IMG/VR virus record: IMGVR_UViG_3300021082_000060
Coordinates: 1 to 41,629 of that record
Length of the DNA stretch: 41,629 nt
Reading direction: 5' to 3' (one strand)
Origin: a virus
Taxonomy: Duplodnaviria; Caudoviricetes
In this document: one piece after another, positions 1 to 40,505 of the stretch
How positions within the stretch are numbered: the first letter of the stretch is position 1
Layout: the number at the start of each line of letters is the position of its first letter
The notes under the pieces: generated by a model
What the model saw: only the letters and a program-made list of their open reading frames with translations
What the model was told of the DNA's origin: nothing
Databases searched by the model: none
Translations under genes and position numbers: made by a program

Positions 1-137
1 GGCACGTTGGACCGGAAGGCGGCTACCGATTAGAGGGCCGTCTCGGCCCCGTTCCCGACAGCCTGCGGCTTGAGGGTATCGACGACGGCCCAGACAAGGT
101 CGGGTAAGGCCGAAGCCCCACCCGTCCAAGCCTGCCC
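1..137. repeat. Terminal direct repeat (copy 1); assembly overlap of a circular or circularly permuted genome
   Basis: 1-137 is identical to 41492-41629 except GACCGG here vs GACCCGG at the end. Confidence 0.93.
98..127 (-). terminator. cUUCGg-capped hairpin closing the pentamer-array transcript
   Basis: Minus strand GGGUGGGGC-UUCG-GCCUUACCC. The G-U pairs and the UUCG tetraloop only work on the minus strand. It lies just after the last array unit. Confidence 0.7.
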
Positions 138-754
138 CGTCAGGACTCGCCCTGGCGCGCCAGGACTAGCCGTGCCACGTCATGCCTGCCCCGCCTCGCC
201 TGCCATGCCTCGCCTCGTCCGGCCATGCCAAGCCCGGCCAAGCCACGCCGGGCCACGCCTGCCTCGCCATGCCCAGCCGGGCCGCGCCGGTCCATGCCTC
301 GTCTTGCCTGCCAAGCCAAGCCGTGCCTCGACAGGCCGTGCCCGGCCCCGTCCTGCCACGCCTTGCCTGCCCCGCCATGCCATGCCGCGCCATGCCGAGC
401 CAACCCCTGCCACGCCTGCCCTGCCCGGCCTTGCCCCACCTCGCCAGAACTGGCCCCGCCCAGCCCCGCCGCGCCTGCCCAGCCTTGCCGTGACGCGCCT
501 ATCCGGACCAAGCCCAGCCCCGCCTCGCCTGCCGTGCCGCGCCCAGGCTGCCCCCGCCCCGCCGCGCCGTGCCTAACCGGGCCACGCCTGCCCTGCCCTG
601 CCTTGCCGCGCCGAGCCCAACCGTGCCGGGCCAAGCCGGGCCTGCCATGCCAGGTCTGGCCCTGCCCCGTCTCGCCTCGCCGCGCCTCGCCGTGCCTGCC
701 CTGCCAGGCCCTGCCGAGCCCGGCCAAGCCGGGCCCTGCCATGCCAAGCCTGCC
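133..754 (-). ncRNA. Array of putative gapped-code guide RNAs: GGCA followed by 9-11 GGY-NN-type pentamers (VIPR-like vrRNA array)
   Basis: Strict 5-nt period (NNGCC on +) reset by a 4-nt TGCC at 133,187,201,260,309,368,417,476,530,589,643,697,751. There are 11 full units of 49-59 nt and one 2-pentamer unit. The array starts 3 nt after the accessory gene stop. Confidence 0.88.
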
Positions 755-757
755 ATG

Positions 758-1234
758 TCACCGCTTGGGCGGTGTCTTCCCGCCGCCCTTGGGACGCCCA
801 GGCTTGCGCCTGGGGGCGGGCGGCGGCTCCTCCCGTACCTGGGTCACGGCGACCCAGACGCGGTCAAGCTCTTGAAGCTCCTCGTACTTCGCCTGCATTC
901 GCTCCAGTTCGTGCAGCGCGTCCTGCAACAAAACCGTGCGCAGATCAGGCGTGTTCATTACCGATTCGATCCGGCGATACCCGCCACCCTCCACCCGATC
1001 GACCGACAAGCTGACGTATTGCCGCGTGAGGGTCTGGGGATTGACGAAAATCGCCACCAGCTGGCGGACCTGCTGGATGCGGTAGGCCTCGGCTGCAATC
1101 GAGTCGTCCCATTCCAACTCGGCATACAGCGCCGAACTGGGATGCGCGCGCGCCCACTCCACCGCAGCCTTCGGTTGGATCAGGCCGCCGCGCTCCAGCC
1201 GCAACAGCTCGCTGGCGACGTTCTCCTTGTTCAT
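758..1234 (-). CDS. Accessory protein of the RAMP/pentamer-array module (158 aa, MNKENVASELLRLERGG...)
   Basis: ATG at 1234 overlaps the RAMP gene stop (ATGA) and has a GGAG RBS. Contains EWDDSIAAEAYRIQQVRQL and a basic C-terminal tail (PRRKPGRPK). Confidence 0.8.
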   Translation of the reverse strand: MNKENVASELLRLERGGLIQPKAAVEWARAHPSSALYAELEWDDSIAAEAYRIQQVRQLVAIFVNPQTLTRQYVSLSVDRVEGGGYRRIESVMNTPDLRTVLLQDALHELERMQAKYEELQELDRVWVAVTQVREEPPPAPRRKPGRPKGGGKTPPKR

Positions 1235-1953
1235 ACGCTCCTGATCTCCATTAGTTCGTCGGTCACCACCTCGAAACGACCAAACCCAAGGCCGTTGGAG
1301 TTGGGGGAGTTGGGCCGGCCTTCGCCGATGCCGACCTGCTTGCCGGCGCGGGCCATCAAATTGAGCAAATCGATTGCCGAGAACTGATCGACGTCCCATT
1401 CGATCGACACCTGGGCCGACCACTCACGCCACATCGGGCGCCAACGGATGTCGGCCACGCCGCTGTCATTTCTAACTGGTGCTTTGTAGGGCTGCGGCGT
1501 GCCGATGATCTTCACCAACTGGCTGCCATCCTCGCTGTCGGTGCCGTCGGCGATGACGAATACCGACAGTTTTGCGTGGGTCATCCTGAAGCCGACGAGG
1601 CGGCAGGCGTCGATGATGGCGTTGCGAAAGCTGGGTGCCGGGATGCCGCACCAGCCCTCGGTGGAGATGTGCATAGCGTCCCGATACAGCTGCTCGAAAT
1701 CCTTCGGCTGGCGCACCTTGCGGCCACGGCTCTGCTGTCCGGCGCGCTGGGTGGCCTCCATGATCCGTTGCTGTTTGGCACTGAATGCATGTTGGACATA
1801 GGGGCTGAGGCCCCGGATGTTGAATCTCGCCACGCCGAGGTTGGGTGGCGTGATCTTGAGTGCCGGCACTGCGGGTGCGGCGGGCTTGTTTATCTCGGTG
1901 GTTTGGGTGCTGGCCTGTTTGCGGACAGGTGGGATACGCTTCGGTGCAGCCAT
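1231..1953 (-). CDS. Stand-alone Cas7-like RAMP protein (Vipr-like effector)
   Basis: RAMP hallmarks: N-terminal beta strand (FNIRGLSP), GIPAPSFRNAIIDAC (cf. IPGSSLKG motif) and C-terminal Gly-rich loop GIGEGRPNSPNSNGLGFGRFEV. No other cas genes are present. Confidence 0.85.
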   Translation of the reverse strand: MAAPKRIPPVRKQASTQTTEINKPAAPAVPALKITPPNLGVARFNIRGLSPYVQHAFSAKQQRIMEATQRAGQQSRGRKVRQPKDFEQLYRDAMHISTEGWCGIPAPSFRNAIIDACRLVGFRMTHAKLSVFVIADGTDSEDGSQLVKIIGTPQPYKAPVRNDSGVADIRWRPMWREWSAQVSIEWDVDQFSAIDLLNLMARAGKQVGIGEGRPNSPNSNGLGFGRFEVVTDELMEIRSV

Positions 1954-2119: not shown

Positions 2120-2287
2120 ATGACCTACCGCATTACCAACCAAACCCTCGGCACCAGCATCATCGTGGATCAGCTGCCGCCCGGCGTCAGCGTCGGCGTG
2201 CATGACATCGGTCCGTCGTGGAACAACCAGCCGCCGCCGCAGTCGATCGTGGAGGAGCTACCGGCGAAAGACGACGACGCACCGTAG
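2120..2287 (+). CDS. Small hypothetical protein (55 aa, MTYRITNQTLG...)
   Basis: AAGGAG RBS, ATG at 2120, TAG at 2285-2287; below the ORF-track cutoff. Confidence 0.6.
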   Translation: MTYRITNQTLGTSIIVDQLPPGVSVGVHDIGPSWNNQPPPQSIVEELPAKDDDAP

Positions 2288-4245: not shown

Positions 4246-4956
4246 ATGTCGAACCCACAACCTACCGGTGTGCCGCACCCTGTCGGACGCGAACCGTCAG
4301 GTCGGTTGGTCCATGTGCGAGACGCACAGCGCGGCCTCGCCTCCAACGTCGTCTGCCTTACCTGCGGCCAACCGTTCGTCGCCCGTCAGGGCGAGCACAA
4401 TGTGTGGCACTTCGCTCACCATGTCGTGGGGCTGACCTGCGGTGGCGGGCTGATGAGCGACGCTCACGCCTACGCCCAGCAGATCCTGCTGGATGCCCGT
4501 CAGCTGACTATGCCAGCCCGCTACGCGCCGCAGGCGCAGACCTGGGTAGCGGATTACAGCGACCCAGTGAGAGAGGCACGTCAGCCATTCGGCTACGTGG
4601 TCGATGTCCTGGTGCAGGAGAGCGGTCGTCGTCTGGGCATCGAGGTGCGCTATCGTCACGCAGTGAACATGGCCAAACGGGCACTAATCCAGGCTGACGG
4701 GTTGGCAGCGATCGAGATCGACATATCCAACACCCATCCGCAGATGCTGTATGAGCCGGAAGCGTTCCGCGCCTACGTGCTGCACGGCGCGGCGCGAGCG
4801 TGGTTGCATAACGACGATGCAATGCGCGCCCGACTGAGACATGCCGAGGCGTCGCGCAAATGGCACCTTCGCGAATCGCCCTATGATGATCCCAACGTCC
4901 CAGCGCCTCGCCTGGAGCCTGGAGCAGGCGAATGGACGACCTTGACGGTCGGCTGA
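4246..4956 (+). CDS. CoiA-like Zn-finger plus PD-(D/E)XK nuclease-fold protein
   Basis: CLTCGQPFVARQGEHNVWHFAH...C and VDVL...GIEVRYRH motifs. Confidence 0.7.
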   Translation: MSNPQPTGVPHPVGREPSGRLVHVRDAQRGLASNVVCLTCGQPFVARQGEHNVWHFAHHVVGLTCGGGLMSDAHAYAQQILLDARQLTMPARYAPQAQTWVADYSDPVREARQPFGYVVDVLVQESGRRLGIEVRYRHAVNMAKRALIQADGLAAIEIDISNTHPQMLYEPEAFRAYVLHGAARAWLHNDDAMRARLRHAEASRKWHLRESPYDDPNVPAPRLEPGAGEWTTLTVG

Positions 4957-4978
4957 CGTGGAATAAAGTTGCGCGCTG

Positions 4979-5395
4979 ATGGGCGAAACTGTTCCCGATG
5001 CGCGTGCTAGCACTTCAGTTGCCCGTAGGCCGGGTCAGTTGTGGCAAAAAGGCCAGAGCGGAAACCCGAAGGGCAGGCCTCGCTCGCCCTACGATCTGCC
5101 TGCGCTCTGTCGTGAGCACACTGCTGAGGCCGTCAGGCGGCTGGTGCAGATCATGCGTGCCGAGGACGACGGGCGCGCTCTGGCAGCCATCCAGCAGCTG
5201 CTGGATCGTGGTTGGGGTCGACCAATTACCCCGATCGTCGACGAGACCGAGGGGACCAGTTTGACGTTGTTGCATTTGATTGCGGCGCGGCGTGTTGCCG
5301 AAACGTTGCAAGCCGTGGCGGAGGGGAAAACCGAGAACGAATCGGGCGACTCCTCCAAGCCTGTGGTCGATTATAGTGTTCCTGCCCTGGAATAG
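4979..5395 (+). CDS. terS: Terminase small subunit-like protein (DUF5681-type)
   Basis: WQKGQSGNPKGRP and LLDRGWGRP motifs typical of this TerS-like family. Confidence 0.7.
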   Translation: MGETVPDARASTSVARRPGQLWQKGQSGNPKGRPRSPYDLPALCREHTAEAVRRLVQIMRAEDDGRALAAIQQLLDRGWGRPITPIVDETEGTSLTLLHLIAARRVAETLQAVAEGKTENESGDSSKPVVDYSVPALE

Positions 5396-5396
5396 T

Positions 5397-5510
5397 CGTT
5401 AGAACAAACGCGGCGTGGCACGACGGGGCCTGTCCCGTACAGGCCCGGCCGGGCTCGTCAGGGCAGGGCAGGCATGACATGGCACAGGGGCGGCATCCTG
5501 CCGCCGCCCC
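5397..5510 (+). ncRNA. Solitary GGY-NN guide unit 1
   Basis: Leader CGTTAGAACAAACGC, 11 pentamers at 5412-5466, GGCA at 5467-5470, 3 more pentamers, then a GGGGCGGC/GCCGCCCC hairpin at 5487-5510. Confidence 0.8.
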
Positions 5511-5518
5511 AGCCGCCC

Positions 5519-6753: not shown

Positions 6754-7074
6754 GTGAGATGTTGTAGATACTGTCTGACCCCTGCCGCCTACGGTGGAGA
6801 CGACCGCATCGAGGAGCTAGAGGCAGCGCTGACCCGCATCATCGAATGGGCTGACGCATATCCGTTCGCCGTGTTTCCAGAGGTGGACGAGGACTACGCC
6901 AAGCGGGCGCACACGGCGCTCACTGAGCACGGCATGACGCTGGACCGGCTGTCTGCCGACGTGATGCGGCATGTGCTGACCGGCGTGCGCCGCATCGCCA
7001 GCGGCGCCTTGCACACACAGGGAGACGCCGCTGCGCCATCAGGTGATGCACCAGCCCCACGCCGGATGCCATGA
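6754..7074 (+). CDS. Hypothetical protein (...IEELEAALTRIIEWADAYP...)
   Basis: GGGAG RBS and GTG at 6754; plausible phage-type protein sequence. Confidence 0.55.
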   Translation: MRCCRYCLTPAAYGGDDRIEELEAALTRIIEWADAYPFAVFPEVDEDYAKRAHTALTEHGMTLDRLSADVMRHVLTGVRRIASGALHTQGDAAAPSGDAPAPRRMP

Positions 7075-9069
7075 GCTCCTGTTGTGCCGGTGGAACTCAT
7101 CGTCGATCCAGGCATAGCTCGACGCCGCTTCCGCCACGCCATTGCGCACCGCCACAGCCAATGCCGCACGCACATACTGCGCGTATCCCACGCTGCCCGA
7201 CGTCTCGTTGTATAGCTCGTTCATGCCGCTTGGGTCGTTCGGCATGTGCGGCACGTCTTCCGGGTGCATCGCTACGGCGCGCATGCCCGCCTCCAGCCAG
7301 GACAGGTACTTCGGCCCGACCAGCACCTGACCAGCCGCATGCGCCACCGGAGCGCCGCGCGTGACCTCCCACAGCGCCTCGTCCGACTTATCGACGACCG
7401 TCATCGTCTCGTTCTGGCACTTGACCGGGAACGGTGGCACCGGCCACGGCCCGCCGCTGTAGTGATCGACCGGGACAAACGTGTCCGCATCGGTGATCGC
7501 CGCGGTGAGGCTGCACGTATATACAAGGCCGGTGTTGTATGGGCAGGGCGCGGAGCGTGGCCACGCCTCCCCGTTGGTGCGCTGAACCTCGGAATCGATC
7601 TTCCAGACCAACGGTTCCGACCACTCGTCGAACCCGAGTTGCACGCACATGCCGTAGACCAGCGACTCAAACGCACACTGCCAGAACACCGCGTAGGTTC
7701 CGGACGGATGCGCCGGGGTGCCCTGCGATCCACCGAATTGCCGGGCGCGGAACACCGCCAGGATCGGGTCCTCGTTGGCCATGTCCTTCAGCGCCTCGGC
7801 GCGGACCCCTTCCATGTGCTGGTGGAACACCGAGCGGGCCAGCAGCCAGCGTGGCGGGTCGTCCGGCGAGGCGACTGCCGCATACAGCTTGTTGCGCAAC
7901 GGCCATGCGCCATACCGCCCGGCCCAGGTGTAGCGACCAGACGCCGGCTCGTCCAGAATTTCGATGTTGGCCTGGAACTGCAACGCCTCTAGGTAATACA
8001 CGTCCCCGGTCAGCAACCACGGCAGGTAGCTACATGCGGGCGAATGTCCGCAGTCATAGGCAACGATGCCCTTGGTCATCGGCACGATCGGATCGCCGCC
8101 CTTCGGGTAGCTGGTCAGCGTCGGGTAATCCCGGATGAGATCGAGAGGCGCGCTGGTCACATAGTCCCTGAGATGCATGGACATCGTGCCCGACGCCTCG
8201 CCCTGGGCGATGACCGTCTCGGTGTTGTTCCCTTTGCACAGCCATTGTGCGGACCAGCCGGTCAGGATGCCGATGTCGGGTCGATCGCCGGTCCAGCCCA
8301 TGCCGGTGACCATGCCGCTGAACCCCATCACGCTATACGTTTGCGGAGCCAGATCGGTGATGAACTGGGCGAGGATCGTGCCGTCATAGTGCGGCACCTT
8401 GCCCTCGGCGATCAGTTGCTCGCGTGAAACACGCACCGGCCTGGGCGCCGACTGCCAGCGCCAGCGGGCATACCACGGATGGCTGGGCACCTCGATCGTG
8501 GCGATCAGCATGTCGCCGTCCCAGATCTCAGCGGTGTAGGCGCCAAGATTGGCTGGCGTCAGCGATGCGACCAGGGGCACGCCGAGCTCGAAGACGACCT
8601 CTTGCCGCCCACCGTCCGCGTCGGGGCGGAACCATACGGTGAGGCCGGGCAGCGTGCCGTCCTGTCTGGGCGCGCGGTAGCAGTGCTGGGTGAACTGGCC
8701 TTCGGGGTCGACGTAGTCCCCCATGTCCTCGGCCCGGACCTGCTCGTAATCCGTCTCGCCGGATGGTGTGCGGATGACAACGGCCAGCCCCTCCCCGATT
8801 GGCTCCGGCTTGGGCGGTTCAGGTGTCGGCAGGGTGTTGTCGATGACCGGCGGGGCTGTCGGTAGGATATTATCGATGAACGGCGGTGCCACGCCGCCCC
8901 ACGTGCCGTCAGGCGGCTCTGGCGTCGGTGGTGTGGGCGTGGTGACCGCGTTCTCCAGCGCCAGCACACGGGCGTCCAGGGCGGCGATCGCCGCATCGGT
9001 GGCGCCGGCATGCTCCTCTAGAGCAGCGACACGCTGTTCCAGCTGTGGATCGTCCGTGGGCTTGGGCAT
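7039..9069 (-). CDS. Large protein: N-terminal coiled coil, Pro-rich linker, putative alpha-helical carbohydrate-active-like domain
   Basis: About 677 aa ORF with IDN(I/T)LPT repeats, GDRPDIG and DCGHSP..YLPWLLTGDVYYLEALQF motifs; function is inferred only. Confidence 0.6.
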   Translation of the reverse strand: MPKPTDDPQLEQRVAALEEHAGATDAAIAALDARVLALENAVTTPTPPTPEPPDGTWGGVAPPFIDNILPTAPPVIDNTLPTPEPPKPEPIGEGLAVVIRTPSGETDYEQVRAEDMGDYVDPEGQFTQHCYRAPRQDGTLPGLTVWFRPDADGGRQEVVFELGVPLVASLTPANLGAYTAEIWDGDMLIATIEVPSHPWYARWRWQSAPRPVRVSREQLIAEGKVPHYDGTILAQFITDLAPQTYSVMGFSGMVTGMGWTGDRPDIGILTGWSAQWLCKGNNTETVIAQGEASGTMSMHLRDYVTSAPLDLIRDYPTLTSYPKGGDPIVPMTKGIVAYDCGHSPACSYLPWLLTGDVYYLEALQFQANIEILDEPASGRYTWAGRYGAWPLRNKLYAAVASPDDPPRWLLARSVFHQHMEGVRAEALKDMANEDPILAVFRARQFGGSQGTPAHPSGTYAVFWQCAFESLVYGMCVQLGFDEWSEPLVWKIDSEVQRTNGEAWPRSAPCPYNTGLVYTCSLTAAITDADTFVPVDHYSGGPWPVPPFPVKCQNETMTVVDKSDEALWEVTRGAPVAHAAGQVLVGPKYLSWLEAGMRAVAMHPEDVPHMPNDPSGMNELYNETSGSVGYAQYVRAALAVAVRNGVAEAASSYAWIDDEFHRHNRSSWHPAWGWCIT

Positions 9070-9315
9070 ATTCACAACCGATCACTGATGAACCGGTGCA
9101 GCATATCTGCGAACTCTCGCAGCGAGAACTCACCGCCCTCACCATCCCGGTCCAGGGCGATCATATCGGGGTCCTCACACAGCGTGACGCGGATATGCTC
9201 GATGGTCAGGACGAACCCGGCGGTGCGTAACGAAGAGTGTTCCTTGGGCATTGGCGTTCCAGTTGGCGAGAATCCGCCGGTAGTGGCATGTTACCCACAG
9301 GGGGAGCCACCCGCT

Positions 9316-10274: not shown

Positions 10275-12824
10275 ATGACGCTGCACCTGCAACCTGATAT
10301 ACTGGCGCCAGATACGAGCGATTCACCACCACCTGCGGGCGGCGCGTCCCCCAACGACAAGCCGCCCGACTTTTCCGCCTTCGACTTCGCCCTCCAGCGC
10401 TACAATCGCGCCCCCATAGCCTTCGTGAAGGAGGTCCTCCTTCAGGAGCCCGACGCGTGGCAGATCGAGGCGCTCAGGGGCTTCGCCCGCGGCTTCACCC
10501 GGCACAGCATCAAAAGTGGTCACGGTGTCGGCAAAGCACTTACGTTATCGGAACTAGTTCCAACGCCGGATGGGCAGAGACGATGGGGTGATCTGCAACC
10601 CGGTGACCGGCTGTTTGGCCGTGATGGCGAGCCGACGCACATCGTAGCGCGCCATGACCAGGGCGTGCGGCCAATCTACCGGGTGACGTTCGATGACGGC
10701 ACGAGCTGCCGCGTTGACGGCGAGCATCTGTGGACCGTGCGCGGTCGCGCGCAGCGGCGGACTGATCGGGCTGGCGGAAAGACCGGCGACTTCATCACCC
10801 TCACTACCGCCGAGATCCTTCGCCGTGGGGTAAAGCGAGCCAACGGTGCAACGCTGGCGCGTCAGTGGGAGCTACCACCCCATGGCCCAGCGCAGTATCC
10901 GGCGCAGCATGTGTCGCTCGCGCCTTATCTGCTCGGGTTCTATCTGGGCGACGGCATGCTGAACAAATCTGGGGTGCAGTTCAGCGGCAGTGAGGCAAAG
11001 ACCCAGGCTCTTATCGAGACATGTGCCGCGCTCGGTATCAGCCACAGCACGCCTCATGGTGATGGAGATCGATGGGTAGTCCGGCTTCGCGGCATAAGCG
11101 CAACGCTCAACGAACTTGGGTTGGGCGGCAAGTTGTCAGGCTCGAAGTTCGTCCCGCTGATCTACAAGGAGAACACTCCAGCCGTCCGTCTCGCCGTGCT
11201 GCAAGGCCTGATGGACACTGACGGTTACTGCGACGCTCGCGGTATCGCTGTTTACACCAGCGTCTCGCAACAACTAGCCGAGGATGTCGCATGGCTGGTG
11301 CGATCGCTCGGCGGCAAGGCTCACATGGGCGCCGCGCAGCGAAGCCACTACCGCGACTCTGACGGTGCGCTGGTGCGCGTGCAGGACCACTACGACGTGA
11401 CAGTGCGCCTGCCACCGGACATGCCGCTGTTTACCCTGCCGCACAAAGCCAACCGCGTGCAGCCCTGTGAGCCGCGCTACCTGGCGCGGTGGATCGAGGC
11501 GATTGAGATGGACGGTGAAGAGGAGGCGATGTGCGTTACAGTTGACGCGCCGGATGGCCTCTATCTCGCGAATGACTTCATCGTCACGCACAACTCATGC
11601 TTGGCTGCCTGGGTGGTGCTGTGGTTCATCTGCACCCGCGCACCGTTCAAGTGTGCGCTGACCGCGCCATCGGCGCCGCAGCTGTTCGACGTCTTATGGC
11701 CCGAGCTCCTCAAGTGGATGGGCCGCATGCCCGAGCAGTGGCAGGCGCTGTGGGACGTGACCACAGACCACATCACCCTCAAATCGGACAAGGAGTGCTT
11801 CGTCACCGCCAGGACATCGAGGCCTGAAACGCCCGAGGCGATGGCAGGATTGCACTCTCGCAACATCCTGCTGGTGGCAGACGAGGCATCCGGCATCGAC
11901 GAGAAGGTCTACGAGGCTGCCAGCGGCTCAATGAGTAGTTCCGGAGCCATTACGTTACTCATTGGCAATCCGACACGAGACTCTGGGTTCTTCTGGCGCA
12001 CGCACACGCTGGAGCGCGATCGCTGGCGCTGCATGACCGTGTCCAGTGCCGAGAGCACGCGTGTCGACCCGAGCTACATCACCGAGATGTCCGAGCGCTA
12101 CGGCAGCGAGAGCAACGCGTTCAGGGTTCGGGTGCTGGGCCAGTTCCCGTCCGGCTCCGACGACGTGTTCATCCCCGGCGAACTGGTCGACAGCGCGATG
12201 AACCGCGACATGGCCCTCGATGTCGGCGCACCGATCATCTGGGGAATCGACGTCGCCAGGTTTGGTGCCGATGCTTCCGTGCTGATCAAGCGCCAGGGCA
12301 GTTGCGTGACCGAGCCACCGCGGCGCTGGCGCAACGTGGACCTCATGGTGCTCGCAGGCGCCATCAAGCACGAATACGATCTGGCCAACACCGCGCGCCC
12401 CATGCTGATCGTGGTGGATTCGATCGGCATCGGCGCTGGCGTGGTCGATCGCCTCCAAGAGCAGGCGCTGCCGGTGCTGGGTGTGAACGTCGCCGAGTCG
12501 CCGGCCAACCAGACCAACTACATGCGCCTTAGGGACGAGCTCTGGGGAAGAACACGGGAATGGCTGGCGACACGCACCGTGCGTTTGCCCCGCGACGACC
12601 TGCTCCGCGCCGATCTTGTGGCGCCGAAATACACGTTCAGCTCTACGGGCAAGCTGACTATCGAGAGCAAAGAGAGTATGCGGCGTAGAGGACTGCCCAG
12701 TCCCGACAGCGCCGATGCGTTAATGTTAACGCTCGCGCAACAAGGGCTGATGGTAACGTCAGCGAACCAGAGTTGGTTATATGATACGCAGCCGGTGATT
12801 AGCAGCATTCCCGGCATGGAGTGA
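10275..12824 (+). CDS. terL: Terminase large subunit containing an intein
   Basis: Walker A SGHGVGK|S, Walker B LLVADEASG, GNP coupling motif, nuclease WGIDVARFGAD and SPDSADAL. Confidence 0.95.
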   Translation: MTLHLQPDILAPDTSDSPPPAGGASPNDKPPDFSAFDFALQRYNRAPIAFVKEVLLQEPDAWQIEALRGFARGFTRHSIKSGHGVGKALTLSELVPTPDGQRRWGDLQPGDRLFGRDGEPTHIVARHDQGVRPIYRVTFDDGTSCRVDGEHLWTVRGRAQRRTDRAGGKTGDFITLTTAEILRRGVKRANGATLARQWELPPHGPAQYPAQHVSLAPYLLGFYLGDGMLNKSGVQFSGSEAKTQALIETCAALGISHSTPHGDGDRWVVRLRGISATLNELGLGGKLSGSKFVPLIYKENTPAVRLAVLQGLMDTDGYCDARGIAVYTSVSQQLAEDVAWLVRSLGGKAHMGAAQRSHYRDSDGALVRVQDHYDVTVRLPPDMPLFTLPHKANRVQPCEPRYLARWIEAIEMDGEEEAMCVTVDAPDGLYLANDFIVTHNSCLAAWVVLWFICTRAPFKCALTAPSAPQLFDVLWPELLKWMGRMPEQWQALWDVTTDHITLKSDKECFVTARTSRPETPEAMAGLHSRNILLVADEASGIDEKVYEAASGSMSSSGAITLLIGNPTRDSGFFWRTHTLERDRWRCMTVSSAESTRVDPSYITEMSERYGSESNAFRVRVLGQFPSGSDDVFIPGELVDSAMNRDMALDVGAPIIWGIDVARFGADASVLIKRQGSCVTEPPRRWRNVDLMVLAGAIKHEYDLANTARPMLIVVDSIGIGAGVVDRLQEQALPVLGVNVAESPANQTNYMRLRDELWGRTREWLATRTVRLPRDDLLRADLVAPKYTFSSTGKLTIESKESMRRRGLPSPDSADALMLTLAQQGLMVTSANQSWLYDTQPVISSIPGME
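10536..11594 (+). mobile_element. Class 3 (Ala1) intein with LAGLIDADG homing endonuclease, 353 aa
   Basis: Starts ALTLSELVPTPDG; block B EHLWTV; LAGLIDADG-like LLGFYLGDG and LQGLMDTDG; block F AMCVTV; ends IVTHN/S. Confidence 0.9.
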
Positions 12825-16481: not shown

Positions 16482-16765
16482 ACTGGACGTTGGACCTCAA
16501 CGCCGAGCCAAAAAGCATCATGGAGGCCCGTCAGGAGGCTTCCATGGCCCAACGGGTGCTGAATGACGCGGTTTTCGTCGATTTCCTCGACCAAATGCAG
16601 CATGCAGCATCAAATACCGCGCTTTTCGATGACAAACTCGAGGTTCGGGACGCCGCACGTGTGAAGGTGCTGACCATTGCCGAGCTCAAGGCCCGGCTTC
16701 AGGAGGCGGCGCGCCGCCCGGTGCAGGACGCCGAGGACCAGGAACAGGCCACGGTACACGAATGA
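16478..16765 (+). CDS. Conserved head-region hypothetical protein
   Basis: ATGA-coupled; between portal and scaffold. Confidence 0.65.
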   Translation: MNWTLDLNAEPKSIMEARQEASMAQRVLNDAVFVDFLDQMQHAASNTALFDDKLEVRDAARVKVLTIAELKARLQEAARRPVQDAEDQEQATVHE

Positions 16766-17100
16766 GCATATGCAACAAATGCGGCGAGCGGGAGCGCAAA
16801 CCAGGGCAGCGATGGTGCCGTGAGTGCCACGCAGCCTACATGCGCGCGTGGCGGCAAACTCACTCTCTCAGCGAGGAGGATCGCAGGAAGGACGCATGCC
16901 GATCATACAGCAGGACGCTGGTGAAACGGGGCAAGCTGGCCCCTGAGCCGTGCCAGACCTGCGGCGCCGAGCCGGCGCAGAGGCATCATCCAGACTACAG
17001 CAACTCGTATCACGTCGAGTGGCTTTGTGCGCCGTGCCACCGCGCGCATCACAAGCCAAGGCCGGAACCGTGGTGGTTACCGGAGGATAATCGCCTGTAA
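16762..17100 (+). CDS. Zn-finger/HNH-like endonuclease
   Basis: CNKC, CREC, CQTC and RHHPDYS...WLCAPCHRAHH. Confidence 0.7.
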   Translation: MSICNKCGERERKPGQRWCRECHAAYMRAWRQTHSLSEEDRRKDACRSYSRTLVKRGKLAPEPCQTCGAEPAQRHHPDYSNSYHVEWLCAPCHRAHHKPRPEPWWLPEDNRL

Positions 17101-17110
17101 GGGGGACCAT

Positions 17111-18193
17111 ATGTCTGAAACAACCGGGCCGGCCCCGCCAGCCGCGCCCACTGCCGACACCAGCAGCAGCGACTTTGCGCCCGCACCAGACACCCGGCCA
17201 GAGCTTAGTGTCAGCGACGCGGCGAGGATGCTGCGGAACGCCAGGCGCGCCCAGCCAGCGCCGCAGCAAGGGCTACCCAACGTGGAGCAGCCTGCCGGCT
17301 TCGGGCACAATTCCGGCGAGGCGGCGCCGCAACCACCGCAAACACCAGCCCAACCCGGTGGCATGTCTGCGCTGGAACGCGCCTTAGGGCTCCAGCCCGA
17401 CTCTGACAATCCTGACGTCCCACATGAAACACCCGGCAGTACGCCTGCCCAAATCCCGGCAGAGATCGAACTGGAGGGCCGGCGCTACACGCAGGCCGAG
17501 TTGGCTGCCGCAGTGCGTCAGGCGCAGGACTACACCCAGAAGACCCAGCAGCTATCCGCCCAGGCACGCCAGCTACAGGCGCAGCAGCAGGCCCTGGCAG
17601 CCGCCCTGCCGCTGATCCAGCCCGAGATTGAGGCGCTGCAACGCCGGCTTGCCGAGGCGCCGCGCCCCGACCCGCAGCTACGCCAGACCGATCCGGCGGC
17701 GTATTGGGACCAGCTGGCGACTTGGCAGGACGCGCAGATCGAGCACCAGCGCGTCTTGGCGATCCAGACGCACCAAGCCCAGGCCCGCGAGGCAGCGGTC
17801 GCCCAGGCTGTCGATCAGGCGAACCACGAACTAGCCCAGAAGTATCCGTTCTGGTCGGACCCGCAGCAAAGGCGGGAGATCCAGCAGGATATCATCAGCT
17901 GGGCCAGAACGCAGGGCTACACCGATCAGGAACTGCACGGCCTGACCTCGGCAAAATATCTTGAAACACTTTTCAAGGCCTCGCTCTATGACCGCTACCA
18001 GGCCCGCATTAAGCCCCAGGCGACGCAGCCTGCTGTGGGGCATGCGCCGCGCGGCACCGCCCCCCCGCCGCCGCCTGCCGCGCGGGTCAGGGAGGCGACC
18101 GAGACGTTCGAGCAGCGGCCCACCGTGGCCAACGCTGCCGCTTTGATCGGTGCCCGGCGGGCACCACGCGGCAATGGACACACCCAATGGTAG
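17111..18193 (+). CDS. Capsid scaffolding protein
   Basis: Disordered N-terminus, DYTQKTQQL motif and coiled coils; upstream of the major capsid gene. Confidence 0.8.
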   Translation: MSETTGPAPPAAPTADTSSSDFAPAPDTRPELSVSDAARMLRNARRAQPAPQQGLPNVEQPAGFGHNSGEAAPQPPQTPAQPGGMSALERALGLQPDSDNPDVPHETPGSTPAQIPAEIELEGRRYTQAELAAAVRQAQDYTQKTQQLSAQARQLQAQQQALAAALPLIQPEIEALQRRLAEAPRPDPQLRQTDPAAYWDQLATWQDAQIEHQRVLAIQTHQAQAREAAVAQAVDQANHELAQKYPFWSDPQQRREIQQDIISWARTQGYTDQELHGLTSAKYLETLFKASLYDRYQARIKPQATQPAVGHAPRGTAPPPPPAARVREATETFEQRPTVANAAALIGARRAPRGNGHTQW

Positions 18194-18228
18194 CCTGTCA
18201 CACTGGCAACATTCCTGGGGGAACGCAC

Positions 18229-18939
18229 ATGAGACACGTATTGCTTGCCGCCACAGCGATCGCCGCTCTTGCCTTCGTGCCGTCAGCCAATGCGACACTG
18301 CAACTGAGCATCGGCGCCAATGGCTCGACCTTCACCTGTGCGGACGGTCAGTTGGGCTGTGACCTGTCAGGCGGCGCCAACAACTTGCTGACGGTCAACA
18401 CGTTGGTGGGCGGCGCCTTCGTGCAGATCACCCTCGTGCAGAGCGTCGCCGGGACGGTCAATTCGCTCCAGATGTCGTCCAGCAACATCGAGAACCAGAG
18501 CGACGCACCGATCGTCGTCACCCTGCTGGCGAGCCAGACGGACTTCCTCGGGCCGGTCTCCGCGATCAGCAACAGTGGCTCGCTCACGTTCAACAACAAC
18601 GTGGGCGCGACCGACAGCACGCTGAAGTTCTGGGCGGACGCGGCGAACGTGCAGGGCGCCAACCCGACCAACACGCCTGGCACCTTGCTGGAGACCGTGA
18701 CGGGAGCCGCGACCACTAACCCGGACTCTTTCGCTGGCAGCAATGTCGCGCTGTTCGCCGCGGGCGGGCCGTTCTCCATGACCGAAGGCGCGGCGCTGGC
18801 GCTGATCACGGGCGGCTCGATCACCGGCTTCAATCAGTCGATGGTGACCACGGCTGCCGTGCCCGAACCGGCCTCCCTGGGTATCCTTGGCCTCGGCATG
18901 CTGGGCCTCGGCATGGTGCAGTATCGCCGCCGCAGCTAG
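18229..18939 (+). CDS. PEP-CTERM sorting-domain exported protein
   Basis: Signal peptide MRHVLLAATAIAALAFVPSANA; Ser/Thr/Asn-rich body; C-terminal VPEPASLGILGLGMLGLGMVQYRRRS. Confidence 0.9.
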   Translation: MRHVLLAATAIAALAFVPSANATLQLSIGANGSTFTCADGQLGCDLSGGANNLLTVNTLVGGAFVQITLVQSVAGTVNSLQMSSSNIENQSDAPIVVTLLASQTDFLGPVSAISNSGSLTFNNNVGATDSTLKFWADAANVQGANPTNTPGTLLETVTGAATTNPDSFAGSNVALFAAGGPFSMTEGAALALITGGSITGFNQSMVTTAAVPEPASLGILGLGMLGLGMVQYRRRS

Positions 18940-18946
18940 ACGGCAC

Positions 18947-19047
18947 GGGGACTGGATTGCCCCAGTCCCCACCTTGCCTGCCGAGCCACGACGGGCCCTG
19001 CCCCGCCCTGTCATGCCACGCCTAGCCACGCCGTCTTTGTTTTAGCG
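18947..19047 (-). ncRNA. Solitary GGY-NN guide unit 2
   Basis: Leader CGCTAAAACAAAGAC, 10 pentamers at 19032-18983, GGCA at 18982-18979, 2 more pentamers, then a GGGGACTGG/CCAGTCCCC hairpin at 18947-18970. Confidence 0.8.
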
Positions 19048-19270
19048 TGAGCTTGCAGGAAACGCACCAACCGTCTTAGTATTTACATCGACGGCGATGG
19101 CAGTGCTCGCACCCAGCGGCGCCGTGACGTGCCGGCATCGAGGCTGATGCCGTTCTGAGGACCACCGACCGGGAGTGCTTGCACCCACTCGGCACGGCCT
19201 CCGCAGGACCAGTCGCTCCAGATGCAGAACCCGCCCCGCAAGGGGCTTGTCCTGTTCTAGGAGCGAATCC

Positions 19271-20257
19271 ATGGCCTCACCGCCAACGATGGCGTCCGCG
19301 CCGGCTAACACCTACACCCAGCAGCTTGCATCCGGCACGGTCCACGAAGACGTCAGCGACGTTATTTATAGAATCGACCCGGAGGAGACCCCGTTCGTCT
19401 CGGCGCTGCCGCAGGTCGGCTCAAAGCAGATTTTGACCGAGTGGCTCACCCAGACCCTGAATAGCGCCGCAGACGTGCCGCAGCCCGAGGGCTTCACGGC
19501 GGTGATCAGCCCGTCTGTGAAACCAGTCCGCATGTCGAATGTCTGTCAGATCTTCGCACGCACGGTCGGGGTGTCGGGAACACTCAGAGTGGTGGATTCG
19601 ATCGGCGGTGAAGATGAGTACAACCGCCAGCTTGTGATGCGGGGCATCGAGCTCAAGCGCGACGTGGAATTGGTCTCCACCTCCAACATTCCCAAGGCGG
19701 CGACCGACCCGCGGCACATGGCCGGCATGCCGACGTTCTGCACCAACGGCAGTGTCGGCGCTGGCGGCACCATGCCGGTCGGCGACGGTAGCGCCGCGGC
19801 AGTGCCGGGCACGGCTAGGGACCTGACACTCACGATCGTCAACGACGCCATGCAGCAGGCGTGGAACCAGGGCGGCAAGCCGACCATCGGGCTCATGTCT
19901 GGTAACATTAAAAACTACTTCAGCACCCTGTCACAGGGCGGCACCGGCAATCCGATCGTGTCGCAGAATATCCAGTCCACGACTGCATCCCAGGAAGTTA
20001 CCATCATGGGCGCGGTGGACGTTTACCGCACCAATTTCGGCACGCTCGATCTGGCGCCTGACAGGTTCATGCCACCCAACATGATGCTGCTGATCACCCG
20101 CGATTACGTGGAATTGGCGCCGCTGCCAGAAAGAAATATGGTGGAACAGGCGTACGCCAAAACGGGCGACAATACGCAGGGCGGCATCGTCTTTGAGGGC
20201 ACGATCCGCGTCACTGCACCCAAGGCGCATGCCGCAATCTTCGGGTTGAACCAGTAG
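19271..20257 (+). CDS. Major capsid protein (DUF5309/SU10-like)
   Basis: EDVSDVIYRIDPEETPF, N.CQIF.RTV.VSGT, ELKRDVE and Y.TNFGT motifs; AGGAG RBS. Confidence 0.9.
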   Translation: MASPPTMASAPANTYTQQLASGTVHEDVSDVIYRIDPEETPFVSALPQVGSKQILTEWLTQTLNSAADVPQPEGFTAVISPSVKPVRMSNVCQIFARTVGVSGTLRVVDSIGGEDEYNRQLVMRGIELKRDVELVSTSNIPKAATDPRHMAGMPTFCTNGSVGAGGTMPVGDGSAAAVPGTARDLTLTIVNDAMQQAWNQGGKPTIGLMSGNIKNYFSTLSQGGTGNPIVSQNIQSTTASQEVTIMGAVDVYRTNFGTLDLAPDRFMPPNMMLLITRDYVELAPLPERNMVEQAYAKTGDNTQGGIVFEGTIRVTAPKAHAAIFGLNQ

Positions 20258-20260
20258 CCC

Positions 20261-20572
20261 ATGCCCACGCTCTATGAACGCTACGACCCGGTCACCACGC
20301 GTTACACCGAGATCGTCACCGACTCGGAGACTGGGCTGCCGATCATTACTTTTACTCAGGATACCAAGCCGATCGTCGAGGCATGCAAGCGGGCGGCCAG
20401 CAACTTCACCGGCACCAGCAAGACCGGCTTCACCCGCGTGGCCAGCATTCCAAACGTGGTGGTGCAGCGGCTGATGCAGACCGGCATCTGGTACGACGAG
20501 AAGGCGATGAACGTGTGGCTGAACCAGCGGGACAACAGAGTGTTCAGGACGGACGACGGACGACGTCTCTAG
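20261..20572 (+). CDS. Conserved post-capsid virion-region protein
   Basis: TQDTKPIVE, VASIP and WLN..DN..FRT pattern; directly after the capsid gene. Confidence 0.75.
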   Translation: MPTLYERYDPVTTRYTEIVTDSETGLPIITFTQDTKPIVEACKRAASNFTGTSKTGFTRVASIPNVVVQRLMQTGIWYDEKAMNVWLNQRDNRVFRTDDGRRL

Positions 20573-29861: not shown

Positions 29862-31424
29862 ATGCCGCGCATCCCGCAAGCGCCTCCCCCAGGTGTGGTG
29901 CGGAACGCGACGCCAGAGGCAACCATCGGAAGATGGTGGGATACGAATCTGATCCGCTTCAGAGGTGGCCAGTTGCAACCGATCGGTGGCAGCGCGGTGC
30001 TGCCAGGGTCGATCGTCGGGGCCAGTGCCGGCCTGCCGCGTGATCTGATTACGTGGCACGACAATGCGCGCATCCGCTGGGCTGCGTTCGGCACTGACAG
30101 CCGGCTGTTCGCCTACAGGTTCGACACCGACACCATTTACGATCTGACGCCGGCAGGTGTCGGGCCGCTCGATCCACCCGGCGCGCTGGTCGGGTATGGG
30201 CTGGGTGACTACGGCGAGGAGACCTACGGCACCGCGCGCGAATCCAGCAACGTCGGCATCCAGGATATCGCGGCGACGATGGGCGACCGCTGGTCGATGG
30301 ATACCTTCGGCGAGCGTCTGCTGATCGTGCCAACCCAGGACGGCCACCTGTTTGAATGGGACCCCAACACCCCGACAACACTGCCCGTGCTGGTGGCCGG
30401 TGCGCCGGACCAGAACCGCGGCGTCATAGTGACCGACCAGCGGCATGTCGTGCTGCTCGGTGCCGCCGGTGATCCGCGGAATGTCGCCTGGAGCGATCAG
30501 GAAGACCCGACCGTCTGGACGCCAACCGCAGTCAATCTGGCCGGGGACAAGCAACTGCAGACCCAGAGCTACGCCATGACGGCGATGAAGGTCAGCGACG
30601 GTATCCTGATCTTCACGGCGAATGACGTGCATAAAATGACCTACGTCGGCGCCCCGTATGCCTATGGGATTGTGGGGATCGCCTCGGGCTGCGGGCCGCT
30701 CTCGCTGCGTGCCGTGGCGGCGGTCGGCAACACCGTCATGTGGCCGGGACAGCAATCGTTCTGGGGTTATGCCGGCAACGTGCAGCCGGTGCCATGTGAT
30801 GTCGGAGATTGGTTTTTCTCACTGGTGAACCGGCAGATGGCTGGTCGGGTGTTCGGTAGTCCCAACCCGGCGTTTGGCGAGCTCTGGTGGGATTTCCCGG
30901 ACGAGGGCTCGCTCGAATGCAACCGCTATGTGGCGCTCAATTACAGCGACGCGGGAAAGCCGTGGACGATCGGCGTTCGCACCAGAACATGCGCTGACAT
31001 GAGCGGGGCGATGGACAATCCGATCATCGGCGGCCCGACGCATGACCCCGCACTCGGGGTGGATTACGGCGCGCTCTACCTCCACGAATTTGGCTACTCA
31101 GAGAACGGCGCGCCACGCGCCCCGGCGGGGATGGTGTATGCCGAGTCCGGCAACATCGTCATGGGCGAGGGCGATGCACGGTTCCACGTCAGGCAGCTGG
31201 TGCTGGATGCCGCCTCGGATGGCGGACTCGGCTACCGGTTCCTGGTGCGTGAACAGCCGCAGGGCGAGGAGTACGACACCGGGCTTCATACCGTGACCCG
31301 CGGTGGCCTGATGGACCTGCGGTTCTCTGGTCGGCACGTGCGGATGCGGATGGAGGCGTTGGCGGATGAGCCGTTCGCGGTCGGTCGGCCAAAGCTGGTG
31401 ATTAGGAAAGGGGGACGCAGGTAA
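29862..31424 (+). CDS. Tail nozzle/tubular (DNA stabilisation) protein
   Basis: 520 aa, beta-rich; WSMDTFGE and VAWSDQEDPTVWTP..NLAG; located before the ejection proteins. Confidence 0.75.
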   Translation: MPRIPQAPPPGVVRNATPEATIGRWWDTNLIRFRGGQLQPIGGSAVLPGSIVGASAGLPRDLITWHDNARIRWAAFGTDSRLFAYRFDTDTIYDLTPAGVGPLDPPGALVGYGLGDYGEETYGTARESSNVGIQDIAATMGDRWSMDTFGERLLIVPTQDGHLFEWDPNTPTTLPVLVAGAPDQNRGVIVTDQRHVVLLGAAGDPRNVAWSDQEDPTVWTPTAVNLAGDKQLQTQSYAMTAMKVSDGILIFTANDVHKMTYVGAPYAYGIVGIASGCGPLSLRAVAAVGNTVMWPGQQSFWGYAGNVQPVPCDVGDWFFSLVNRQMAGRVFGSPNPAFGELWWDFPDEGSLECNRYVALNYSDAGKPWTIGVRTRTCADMSGAMDNPIIGGPTHDPALGVDYGALYLHEFGYSENGAPRAPAGMVYAESGNIVMGEGDARFHVRQLVLDAASDGGLGYRFLVREQPQGEEYDTGLHTVTRGGLMDLRFSGRHVRMRMEALADEPFAVGRPKLVIRKGGRR

Positions 31425-31648
31425 TGCCGCGTCCGTATCATCCAGCGCCACCGTTCAGCGCGCCTACTGCGGGCAGCATCGATGAGCGCCTGGCGGTTAT
31501 GGCAGCGGCGATCTCGCGCAAGCAGGACCAGGGCATCCAGGGCACCGCGCAGCAGTTCATGGCGCTGATCTCGCCAAACGGCACCACGTATCGCATCGAG
31601 ATCGATGATGCCGGCGTGATGCACACGACCGTGGTGCCGCGCACATGA
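31424..31648 (+). CDS. Small virion-region protein
   Basis: TAATG coupling; LISPNGTTYRIEIDDAG. Confidence 0.65.
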   Translation: MPRPYHPAPPFSAPTAGSIDERLAVMAAAISRKQDQGIQGTAQQFMALISPNGTTYRIEIDDAGVMHTTVVPRT

Positions 31649-32013
31649 CGAACGAACAGAAGGTACGGCGGTTCGAGAAGGCGCTGGCGCAAGCTGGCAA
31701 CACTCACACCATTGCCGACGTCATGCAGCGGATCGAGCAGAACAAGGCGTGTTGCTGGACCAACGGTGATTCGGTCGTGGTCACCGAAGTCCTCGTGTTC
31801 CCCAGGCTGCGTGCGGTGAACTACTGGGTAGTGAGTGGCAAGCTGCAGGAGTGTGCTGCGCTACAGCCTGACATCGACGCGTGGGCGGTCAGTGAGGGCT
31901 GCAGCGTTGCCACGGCCACGGGCCGCATGGGATGGCTCAGGCTGAGTCAGACGCCGATCGGCGAAGGGTGGCACGCTGCCGGCATTAAATATCTGAAGGA
32001 GCTACGCCCATGA
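31645..32013 (+). CDS. GNAT-like conserved podophage protein
   Basis: VVTEVLVFPRLR...WA.SEGC...TGRMGW. Confidence 0.65.
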   Translation: MTNEQKVRRFEKALAQAGNTHTIADVMQRIEQNKACCWTNGDSVVVTEVLVFPRLRAVNYWVVSGKLQECAALQPDIDAWAVSEGCSVATATGRMGWLRLSQTPIGEGWHAAGIKYLKELRP

Positions 32014-33146
32014 GCGGTGGCGGCGGCAGCGGGTCATCAACCAACACAGTTCAGAACACCAACGCGTATATACCACCGTGGCTGGAGGGCTATTCAAAGG
32101 ACGCGGTAGACCGCGCCAACGCGCTATCCCTGAATGCGTATCAACCGTACGGTGGCCAGACCGTTGCGGGCATGGATCCGGCGCAGCAGCAGGCCTACAA
32201 CCAGGTCGCGGGCATGCAGGGCCTGGGGACCGGCGCCGCGGCCACCGGCATCAATGCTCAGGCAAATCTTGCCGGGCAGGTCTCGCCACTCACGGCTGGC
32301 GGCATCAACGCCAACGCCAACCAGTTGCAGCAAGGCTTCATGGGCCAGGTCTACGGACCGTCGCAGGGCTTGCTCGGCAACTATGCATCGCAGGGTCCGG
32401 CGACGGCGCAGGGCGTGGCGGCTGGCGCCAACCAACTGATGTCGCCCTACACCCAGTCGGTGGTCGACCCGGCGAACCAGCTGATGCAGCAGCAGTTGCG
32501 CAGCAACCTCAACGCGATCGGTGCCGGGGCGAATCAGGCGGGTGCGTTCGGTGGCAGCAGGCAGGGCGTGCAAGAGGGCATCGCGCAATCACAGGCGGCG
32601 CTAGGGTCGGAGAAGTATCTCGGCGACCTGCTCAACAACCAGTGGAATCAGGCCACCGGCATCAGTCGGGACGTGGCGTTGCAGGCCGGGCAGCAGGGTC
32701 TCGCCTCCAATACCGCGCTGGCCAACCTGCTACAGGGTGGCTACGGGGCCAACCAGAGGCTCGGCGCCGACATCATGTCGTCCAACCTCAGCCAGGGCCT
32801 CGGCGCGGCGCAGAACCTGCCGCAAAGCCTGACGTCGCTGCAGAACATGATGCTGGGCCAGTCCAATGCGCTGAACCAGGCTGGCACGCTGCAGCAGCAG
32901 TATCAGCAGCAGTTGCTGAATGCGCAGCAGGGAGCTTTCGCACAGCAACAGGCATTCCCGTATCAGCAGTTGCAGACGTTGCTCGGCGCGGTGTCGGGCA
33001 TCCCCTACAGCACATCCAATACGGGCTTCGCGCAGGAGATGAACCCGTACTATTCGAACCCGATAGGACAAGGCATCGGAGGGGCGGCGACAGTCTTAGG
33101 GTTGGGCGGCGAGCTTATCGACCAGATAAACGCGGGGGGCGCGTAG
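32010..33146 (+). CDS. DNA ejection/pilot (internal virion) protein
   Basis: YQPYGGQTVAG, MSPYTQSVVD, AGAFGGSRQG; Gln/Gly-rich. Confidence 0.75.
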   Translation: MSGGGGSGSSTNTVQNTNAYIPPWLEGYSKDAVDRANALSLNAYQPYGGQTVAGMDPAQQQAYNQVAGMQGLGTGAAATGINAQANLAGQVSPLTAGGINANANQLQQGFMGQVYGPSQGLLGNYASQGPATAQGVAAGANQLMSPYTQSVVDPANQLMQQQLRSNLNAIGAGANQAGAFGGSRQGVQEGIAQSQAALGSEKYLGDLLNNQWNQATGISRDVALQAGQQGLASNTALANLLQGGYGANQRLGADIMSSNLSQGLGAAQNLPQSLTSLQNMMLGQSNALNQAGTLQQQYQQQLLNAQQGAFAQQQAFPYQQLQTLLGAVSGIPYSTSNTGFAQEMNPYYSNPIGQGIGGAATVLGLGGELIDQINAGGA

Positions 33147-39793: not shown

Positions 39794-39864
39794 AATCTCC
39801 TTGCAGGTCGGCTTGGCAGAGCTTAACTAGGTAAAGTCTTATGCGAATGCAAGGAGAAAACAAC

Positions 39865-40101
39865 GTGCGATACGTTTACAAGAGCCCGCGTATGGAGCGC
39901 GAGCGGGACGCGGTGCTAGGGCCTCTGCTGACCCAGCGCGGTATGGTCACGTTCCTGGCGCGTGAATTGGGCATCTCCAAAGCCGCGGTAGCGCAGTGGT
40001 ACAGCATTCCCGACATGCATATCGCGGCGATCAGCAAGCTATTGGACATCCCGCAATACCAACTGCGCCAGCAGCCGCGCCGTCCGAAGGTGGCGGCGTG
40101 A
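39865..40101 (+). CDS. Cro-like HTH regulator
   Basis: AAGGAG RBS before GTG at 39865; FLARELGISKAAVAQWYSIP. Confidence 0.8.
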   Translation: MRYVYKSPRMERERDAVLGPLLTQRGMVTFLARELGISKAAVAQWYSIPDMHIAAISKLLDIPQYQLRQQPRRPKVAA

Positions 40102-40505
40102 TGTACAAGGCCGATCTGATCACCGAGTTCGGTGCGGACGACAGGAAGCGCCAGCACCTGGAGGACGACCTCCAGGCGGCGGTCTGCACGCTGCTGAAGT
40201 GGGCGCTACCGGCGGATGCAACGTTCTGGGCGGTGCCTAACGGCGGGCTGCGGCATAAGCAGGAGGCGGCGCGGATGACCCGCCTCGGTGTACGTGCGGG
40301 GGTTGCTGATATTCACGTCGTCTATCGCGGGCGCCTCTACTGCCTCGAGCTCAAGGCGCCCAAGGGCCAGCTGAGTGCCACGCAGATGCAGATGATGCGC
40401 AAGCTGGAGGTGTGCGGCGTGCCGACTGCGGTCATCCGCGAACTCAGCGACATCCCACACATCATGGGCGAGTGGAATATCCCTCTGTCGGCGCGTCTCA
40501 GTTGA
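40101..40505 (+). CDS. VRR-NUC domain nuclease
   Basis: EDDLQ, AVPNGG, GVRAGVADI and LELKAPKGQLS..Q motifs. Confidence 0.88.
   Translation: MYKADLITEFGADDRKRQHLEDDLQAAVCTLLKWALPADATFWAVPNGGLRHKQEAARMTRLGVRAGVADIHVVYRGRLYCLELKAPKGQLSATQMQMMRKLEVCGVPTAVIRELSDIPHIMGEWNIPLSARLS

Follow-up and report, generated by a model that had tools for sequence, protein, structure and literature searches.

The phage and its VIPR locus

The stretch of DNA analysed here (the window; 41,629 nt) is a complete phage genome, a circular assembly with a terminal overlap of 126 nt. It encodes portal and capsid proteins of SU10 type, a terL that contains a LAGLIDADG domain, a VapE-type helicase, and Erf and Gam-like proteins; no integrase was found among the window ORFs scanned. 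The metagenome runs containing the stretch come from freshwater sediment, soil and rhizosphere, and runs with small word shares were left out of the evidence. At the left end of the window lie the following features.

132..755, minus strand: staggered vrRNA array with 11 guides and a 3-unit stub; GGCAGGC joints with 1-nt overlap
758..1234, minus strand: vap accessory gene; product helical and weakly winged-helix-like; ATGA overlap with the vipr stop
1231..1953, minus strand: vipr, RAMP-fold effector; only significant PDB match SUSP1 Vipr (36pp_D, E=1.9e-4)
1514..1542, minus strand: site of array guide A1 in the phage's own vipr; 16/20 on self, 19/20 on the vipr of the relative G001

We found that the window carries a full VIPR locus, with vipr, vap and GGY/NN guides that skip 1 nt at codon position 3. 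From the alignment, the vipr match to SUSP1 Vipr appears to take in residues 169-215, R138 and the G-loop region, and none of 54 ORFs scanned against PHROGs matched a cas-like family. For Vap (model pLDDT 78.6), the best Foldseek E value was 0.19, with forkhead/winged-helix rows, and the Foldseek PDB search gave no nuclease match. A Vipr search of genome_contigs found no relative. Elsewhere, Vipr homologs about 31% identical occur in 27 Mycobacterium and 5 Gordonia phage records (H2-H33), and L299 (Cyanophage Cy-LDV1) has at 30584-32104 a Vipr 54% identical together with GGYNN arrays, annotated as hypothetical.

For the array, most guides of the window and of G001 had no convincing target in the loci compared. 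Guide A1 has a second near-match in the window at 2169-2197 (minus strand; 17/20, reached by 3/1000 shuffles). Guide A11 (186-132) gives a sense, codon-frame decode, MVT[Y]LA[R][E/D]LG, at 39943-39971 (plus strand) in an HTH-like regulator ORF (39841-40101), where self scores 17/20 (2/1000 shuffles), above the 16/20 of G001, the only comparable relative. Guide A0 was tried against the phage's own vap and rejected (15/20; not significant, 159/1000). The G001 array (G001:C1:32566-32419) holds a duplicated guide and another nearly shared with window A2 (642-588); a target was found neither for the duplicated guide nor for A2.

Several other parts of the genome were noted. Within terL (10275-12824), which has the LAGLIDADG-like domain, the G001 alignment skips 10535-11597, and this gap suggests an intein that G001 lacks. 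Three ORFs with PHROG HNH/endonuclease matches (16762-17100, 39996-40505 and 40412-41131) resemble free-standing endonucleases. A PEP-CTERM protein, unusual in a phage, is encoded at 18187-18939 between the scaffold and capsid genes. The non-coding leader 5' of the capsid gene (19095-19245), with repeated GTGCT(C/T)GCACCCA, is conserved in all aligned relatives and is possibly a structured RNA. Between terS and terL, on the opposite strand, a 678-aa ORF (7039-9075, minus strand) without a Pfam or PHROG match is kept in G001 at 81% nucleotide identity.

A solo guide lies behind a likely terS

About 3.5 kb from vipr, hence inside the 20-kb cut-off of the published definition of a solo vrRNA (10.64898/2026.10.15.759431), stands a guide outside the array, which we call S1, with these neighbours.

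4979..5395, plus strand: target gene, likely the terminase small subunit (terS); Pfam DUF5681, E=2.4e-8
5198..5229, plus strand: own-allele site of S1, 20/22; predicted to pair on the coding strand, passing over third codon positions
5231..5395, plus strand: recoded, TTG-rich 3' part of terS in guide carriers; holds the site of the guide of G002 at 5261-5299
5396..5411, plus strand: cassette leader, absent from the empty site in L095 and L096
5412..5473, plus strand: solo vrRNA S1; 11 informative GGY/NN-type units, then the GGCAGGC end
5487..5510, plus strand: GC-rich hairpin closing S1; 8-bp stem; z -1.0, not exceptional

In PBR31 the homolog of ORF 4979-5395 immediately precedes terL, in phiAX1 it stands two genes ahead of the portal, and 5 of 52 homologs match the PHROG terS family phrog_2538, the query itself matching none. 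The top Foldseek rows (pLDDT 68 model) are the small terminases of NV1 and PaP3, at non-significant E values of 3.5-5.2. The window terL starts 4.9 kb downstream. Hence, from DUF5681, the PBR31/phiAX1 synteny, the PHROG homologs and the top Foldseek rows, the gene is likely terS, and the name that the initial annotation had given it holds as likely (DUF5681) rather than as established. Among protein clusters with the terS motif, 16/111 have the Val peptide and 48/111 the Ile peptide.

The units of S1 read, from 5412, GGCGT GGCAC GACGG GGCCT GTCCC GTACA GGCCC GGCCG GGCTC GTCAG GGCAG, then GGCAG GC. Counting the terminal one, there are 12 units (the VIPR norm is about 9-16 GGY/NN repeats), 4 of them with a degenerate GAC/GTC/GTA head, and all 24 guides in the arrays of the window and G001 likewise close with the GGCAGGC junction. 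Two other studies have contigs, X3 (over 4950-5452) and X4 (over 5161-5455), that agree with the window in every letter; hence, the tract is not an assembly error. A promoter/terminator scan of the cassette found nothing, including no sigma-70 consensus at 5396..5411. Hairpins resembling 5487..5510 trail the other solo guides as well; this one is likely a guide tail or terminator. X22, a soil RNA-library contig, spans a G001-type cassette, which does not amount to transcription.

The initial annotation had read 11 dinucleotides in S1 which, with one-base gaps, decode in frame to LLDRGWGRPIT of terS at 20/22, and we confirm this reading. Allowing a 1-nt skip, S1 scores highest in the genome at 5198-5229, where it matches 20/22 bases and 9/11 dinucleotides; this site is in the codon frame of ORF 4979-5395 and lies 214 nt from the guide. 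The next-best site has 15/22. At skips of 0 and 2 the best scores are 15/22 each, and a skip of 3 recovers the guide itself only. The shuffled controls that had been proposed refute a chance match, since a score of 20 was attained by 0/2000 order-shuffled guides; it was likewise attained by 0/2000 pool-drawn guides. Scoring without the first and last informative units gives 16/18 (matched by 2/2000 shuffles), and counting the terminal unit as a 12th dinucleotide gives 21/24. Of the two self mismatches, AG vs CGA is synonymous (Arg) and GT vs ATT is a Val/Ile difference. Both are true mismatches and not G.T wobbles; they fall in units 2 and 4, so that 7 perfect units remain at the guide 3' end. 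At the site, GC3 is 4/11 codons, in the lowest 2% of 559 blocks.

S1 and the terS alleles of relatives

Relatives were gathered from 6/64 metagenome parts and from 40/64 and 28/64 viral parts (two terS scans), and are undersampled. Duplicate records (L247=G002, L250=G001, L084 within the L283 contig, L273, L285, L286, L295 and L296) were dropped before counting, leaving a family set of 42 contigs and loci; the members of the pairs L283/G001 and L097/G004 do not differ at the terS site, yet each is counted.

Twelve relatives cover the S1 site. Five of them score 21/22 and seven score 20/22, tied with self, so the margin of the best relative over self is one base. In G001 and L283, terS reads TTG CTC GAT CGT GGT TGG GGT AGA CCT GTG ACC, which departs from S1 solely by a G.T wobble in the final unit; 21/22 is also reached in L095, L096 and G003, which have AG but Ile. 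Among those at 20/22, six have the same two mismatches as self, and L092 has two wobbles. Hence, self is not specially recoded at this site, since 6/12 relatives share its read bases. The earlier proposal that the guide targets terS of a close relative and may spare self finds support in that the Val/AGA allele exists (G001, L283, L092 and the X5 contig) and gives the best match, at 21/22 plus the G.T wobble in G001/L283; the perfect hit looked for was not obtained, the exact S1 pattern having 0 matches in viral_contigs. A search of genome_contigs with the 20-base pattern gave one match, in a Lentzea chromosome, which we rejected because it lies in no terS-like ORF and is at about chance level.

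A guide occurs at the same position in G001/L283 and in G002, and in L095 and L096 the site is empty, the terS stop abutting the convergent gene. Hence, 5396-5518 is an insertion. The G001 guide differs from S1 at 4/11 dinucleotides, all first-codon-position swaps (V/I, R AG/CG twice, L CT/TT), and matches its own allele at 17/22 and that of the window at 20/22. Since this equals the window's self score, reciprocity between the two guides is imperfect; the exact G001 pattern had 0 matches in viral_contigs. The G002 guide reads a later terS segment, with 20/26 on self and on the other TTG-rich alleles and 24/26 in 8 guide-less relatives.

The 3' part of terS plus the guide is 95-98% identical among the window, G001 and G002, whereas the 5' part of terS is only 63-67% identical. 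Compared with guide-less relatives, the 3' terS of the carriers is 64-73% identical to 7/8 and 82-84% to L092, and the nearest relative of each carrier in 5' terS is without the guide (86, 95 and 95%). Hence, with 3' ends alike and 5' ends differing by a third across three carriers, 3' terS and guide moved laterally as one cassette. The boundary of the moved piece falls at the target region. Window-type and empty alleles co-occur in one run (X3), and resistant-type alleles also stand without an adjacent guide, in L092 terS and at the capsid start of G001 and G002.

Solo guides across the phage family

In the family set we found 22 copies of solo guides, 11 of them distinct, at five places: behind terS, terL and the scaffold gene, and ahead of the portal and the capsid gene. 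For all 11 distinct guides, the best self site lies 81-1295 nt off, in codon frame and antisense to the mRNA, and its score is below that of the best relative. The self scores are reached by <=5/1000 shuffles for 8/11 guides and by 39-45/1000 for the other three, which are weak; the guide por.G003 differs from relatives at one terminal unit only (13 vs 14/16). A joint adjacency figure of 1e-9 treats the 11 guides as independent though they share 5 insertion loci, and is not relied on. For the scaffold guides, 10-unit scoring puts the best self site elsewhere in G001 and 11-unit scoring makes it local; hence, unit boundaries matter.

The window has a second such guide, S2, 17 kb from vipr.

18976..19032, minus strand: solo vrRNA S2, lying 5' of the major capsid gene
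20327..20355, plus strand: own-allele site of S2 in ORF 20261-20572; ETGLPIITFT, 18/20 on self; ETGLPLITYT, 20/20, in 12/12 relatives

At the S2 site the window alone has changed Leu to Ile and Tyr to Phe, both at read positions, and this allele is confirmed in the X3 and X4 contigs. A capsid guide scores 18/18 on five relatives, and its four carriers have Ser AGT for TCN; a terL guide scores 22/22 on the allele of another carrier and 19/22 on itself. One solo-guide target is a small membrane-type gene, not obviously essential. Many carrier target sites are also rich in A/T at third positions, where the code is expected to read nothing.

On some contigs two solo guides lie 0.5-1.1 kb apart (G003:C1:2526-3016; L294 3946-4436; L249 407-1593), each aimed at its own neighbour gene. 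Recoded patches without an adjacent guide occur in the window capsid gene (19350-19375, AGC GAC GTT ATT TAT AGA) and at the terL 3' end (about 12480-12520, CCC GAC AGC ... TTA ATG TTA), and possibly are scars of earlier guides. Low-GC3 patches recur in the capsid and terL ends of relatives.

Outside the family, 11 distant VIPR loci have 31 guide-like runs, and a neighbouring in-frame target was found for at least two: the guide shared by G009/L263 (17/20 on the neighbouring gene, 20/20 on its L265 homolog) and the G005 solo guide, which fits its neighbour at 5/9 residues, 62 of 109 aligned homologs fitting at 7 or more.

S1 as a likely guide against kin

S1 spells the gene version of some relatives, misses that of its own phage by two bases, and moved with the gene end; hence, it is likely a weapon against kin. 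In full, we consider it probable that S1 is a stand-alone VIPR guide behind a likely terS which loads the phage's own Vipr and silences or blocks that gene in co-infecting relatives, the linked carrier allele likely escaping through its two mismatches. S1 would be transcribed from its own leader and loaded by the phage's Vipr, and the complex would bind sensitive alleles of a co-infecting relative on their coding strand. The bound filament would then block transcription, as in SUSP1, or replication or packaging, and the carrier allele would be immune through the two internal mismatches at read positions. Linkage would be selected because a recombinant with the guide and a sensitive allele would silence itself; tight linkage would thus prevent recombination in the population from separating the guide and its resistant allele.

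Since third positions go unread, escape must use first-position swaps in Leu, Arg or Ser codons or conservative residues, and the alleles observed do show such changes. The sole readable synonymous changes would be Leu CTN/TTR, Arg CGN/AGR and Ser TCN/AGY, with conservative substitutions beside them. S1 itself may have arisen in a second round, its aim having shifted to the AGA/GTG allele that rival carriers have.

Several results weigh against this kin-directed reading. Neither S1 nor the G001 guide has a perfect target in viral_contigs, the margin of S1 is a single base, three of the 11 solo guides are weak on self, resistant-type alleles also stand apart from any guide, array guide A11 favours self, and one target gene is not obviously essential. 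Binding of S1 to its own terS is moreover plausible, given 7 perfect 3' units, filaments that resolve 3' to 5', and the 89% match of a natural 6-unit SUSP1 footprint.

Four other readings were weighed. Under one of them, RNA-guided homing or marker exclusion would make the cassette a selfish drive: in mixed infection, the filament bound to the sensitive allele would keep it from being replicated or packaged, or would bring about a cut, and the carrier's allele and its guide would then be copied into the rival genome by recombination. This extends the kin-directed explanation and does not exclude it; we hold it to be possible but doubtful. It fits a lateral cassette on three unrelated 5' backbones with its boundary at the target site, a target 0.1-1.3 kb from an intergenic element, as described for free-standing homing endonucleases (PMC2988022), and a phage with genes for Erf and Gam-like recombination proteins and for HNH-type endonucleases, whose terL contains LAGLIDADG. 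However, a nuclease was not found in the VIPR operon, the activity published for SUSP1 VIPR, as far as the accessible text goes, is repression, and the same mosaic is expected from ordinary recombination with linkage selection. More broadly, and as tentatively, the cassettes of about 120 nt might be natural RNA-guided gene drives, borrowing a shared Vipr, excluding the sensitive neighbour allele in co-infection and having the resistant allele co-copied by recombination, with successive guides chasing each other's resistant alleles through six-fold codon swaps and so recoding core genes.

Under autoregulation, S1 would bind its own terS imperfectly and so damp or time expression. The seven 3' units are perfect, the self match of 91% is over the 80% cut-off given for natural targets in the accessible text of 10.64898/2026.04.26.720920, the guide adjoins its target, and self is the commonest allele at the read positions. 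We nevertheless judge autoregulation unlikely: self scores below the best relative in 11/11 guides, the S2 carrier alone changed two residues, both at read positions, one locus has different guides in different carriers, and of eight relatives that have no guide next to the gene, six retain the usual order of genes and manage without one. More improbable still is that guides are copied from nearby DNA, land near the template and drift, so that adjacency would come from acquisition and not from linkage selection. Adjacency is universal among the family solo guides, and the accessible VIPR literature describes no route of vrRNA acquisition, both of which suit such a relic; guide differences are limited to codon-meaningful swaps, however, and relatives match perfectly where the carrier allele is derived (S2; capsid Ser AGT). 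Chance, for which a GC-rich genome and the many guides and registers tried might speak, has a negligible probability given the shuffles (0/2000), the codon frame, the 214-nt distance and the repetition at other loci.

Comparison with known systems

The VIPR code, wobble skipping and staggered arrays are already published (10.64898/2026.04.26.720920; arrays in the fig. S18 legend), as are the structures, in which filaments resolve 3' to 5' along the guide (10.64898/2026.04.26.720927), and the natural 6-unit SUSP1 footprint, which averages an 89% match (10.64898/2026.10.15.759431). The present locus is like VIPR as set out in the accessible text of the first of these in its operon of a Vipr RAMP and vap, its GGY/NN guides with 1-nt wobble skip, its staggered array and its phage-versus-phage targets. 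Unlike there, where the tested clades are given as having no self hits >=80%, self hits here are 90-91%. As targets the text names satellites, resident prophages and other VIPR systems, whereas the guides here are aimed at alleles of the carrier's own packaging and head genes and lie dispersed next to these.

Solo or orphan vrRNAs are also published, defined in the accessible text by the absence of vipr from the contig or from 20 kb (10.64898/2026.10.15.759431); by that definition neither S1 nor S2 would count as solo. Features in common are guides that stand alone, guides aimed at the vipr of relatives, and a self-match below that of rivals (there for vrRNA-targeting guides). The published ones, as described, lie in satellites or vipr-null phages and act against REP elements, vipr, vrRNAs and satellites, whereas here the phage has its own vipr and the guide is linked to the orthologous target allele. 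Guide-beside-target cassettes were not found in literature searches or in the accessible text of the VIPR preprints; supplementary target tables, outside this scope, could hold such cases. In the main texts of 10.64898/2026.04.26.720920 and 10.64898/2026.10.15.759431 the word 'homing' has 0 occurrences, and a search of the accessible VIPR papers for the term 'mismatch' found no mismatch-tolerance data. VIPR, the skip code and solo guides being already known, what is likely new is the arrangement and its likely role, a guide linked to the allele of its target. Such a role, which we did not meet in the accessible preprint text, would be conflict between alleles of a single phage population, in which the guide and the resistant allele are passed on together. 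The natural pairs of sensitive and resistant targets, two bases apart, offer a direct test of VIPR mismatch tolerance, and the swaps in Leu, Arg and Ser first positions with conservative substitutions are an apparent escape route from a wobble-skipping code.

Intronless homing (T4 SegF, SegG and MobE; PMC2988022) is similar in that an intergenic element has a conserved neighbour target hundreds to thousands of bp away. As the accessible text describes it, it involves co-conversion of flanks and marker exclusion between related phages; here a neighbour target, a polymorphic carrier allele and a co-converted tract are found. Unlike in intronless homing, the specificity element is an RNA gene of about 120 nt with a shared effector; the cassette encodes no protein, and a nuclease was not found. 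By its anatomy, the cassette may bias its own transmission as intronless homing does. Should inheritance prove biased, the cassette would count as a homing element with small-RNA specificity and would help to trace how vrRNAs are gained and redirected.
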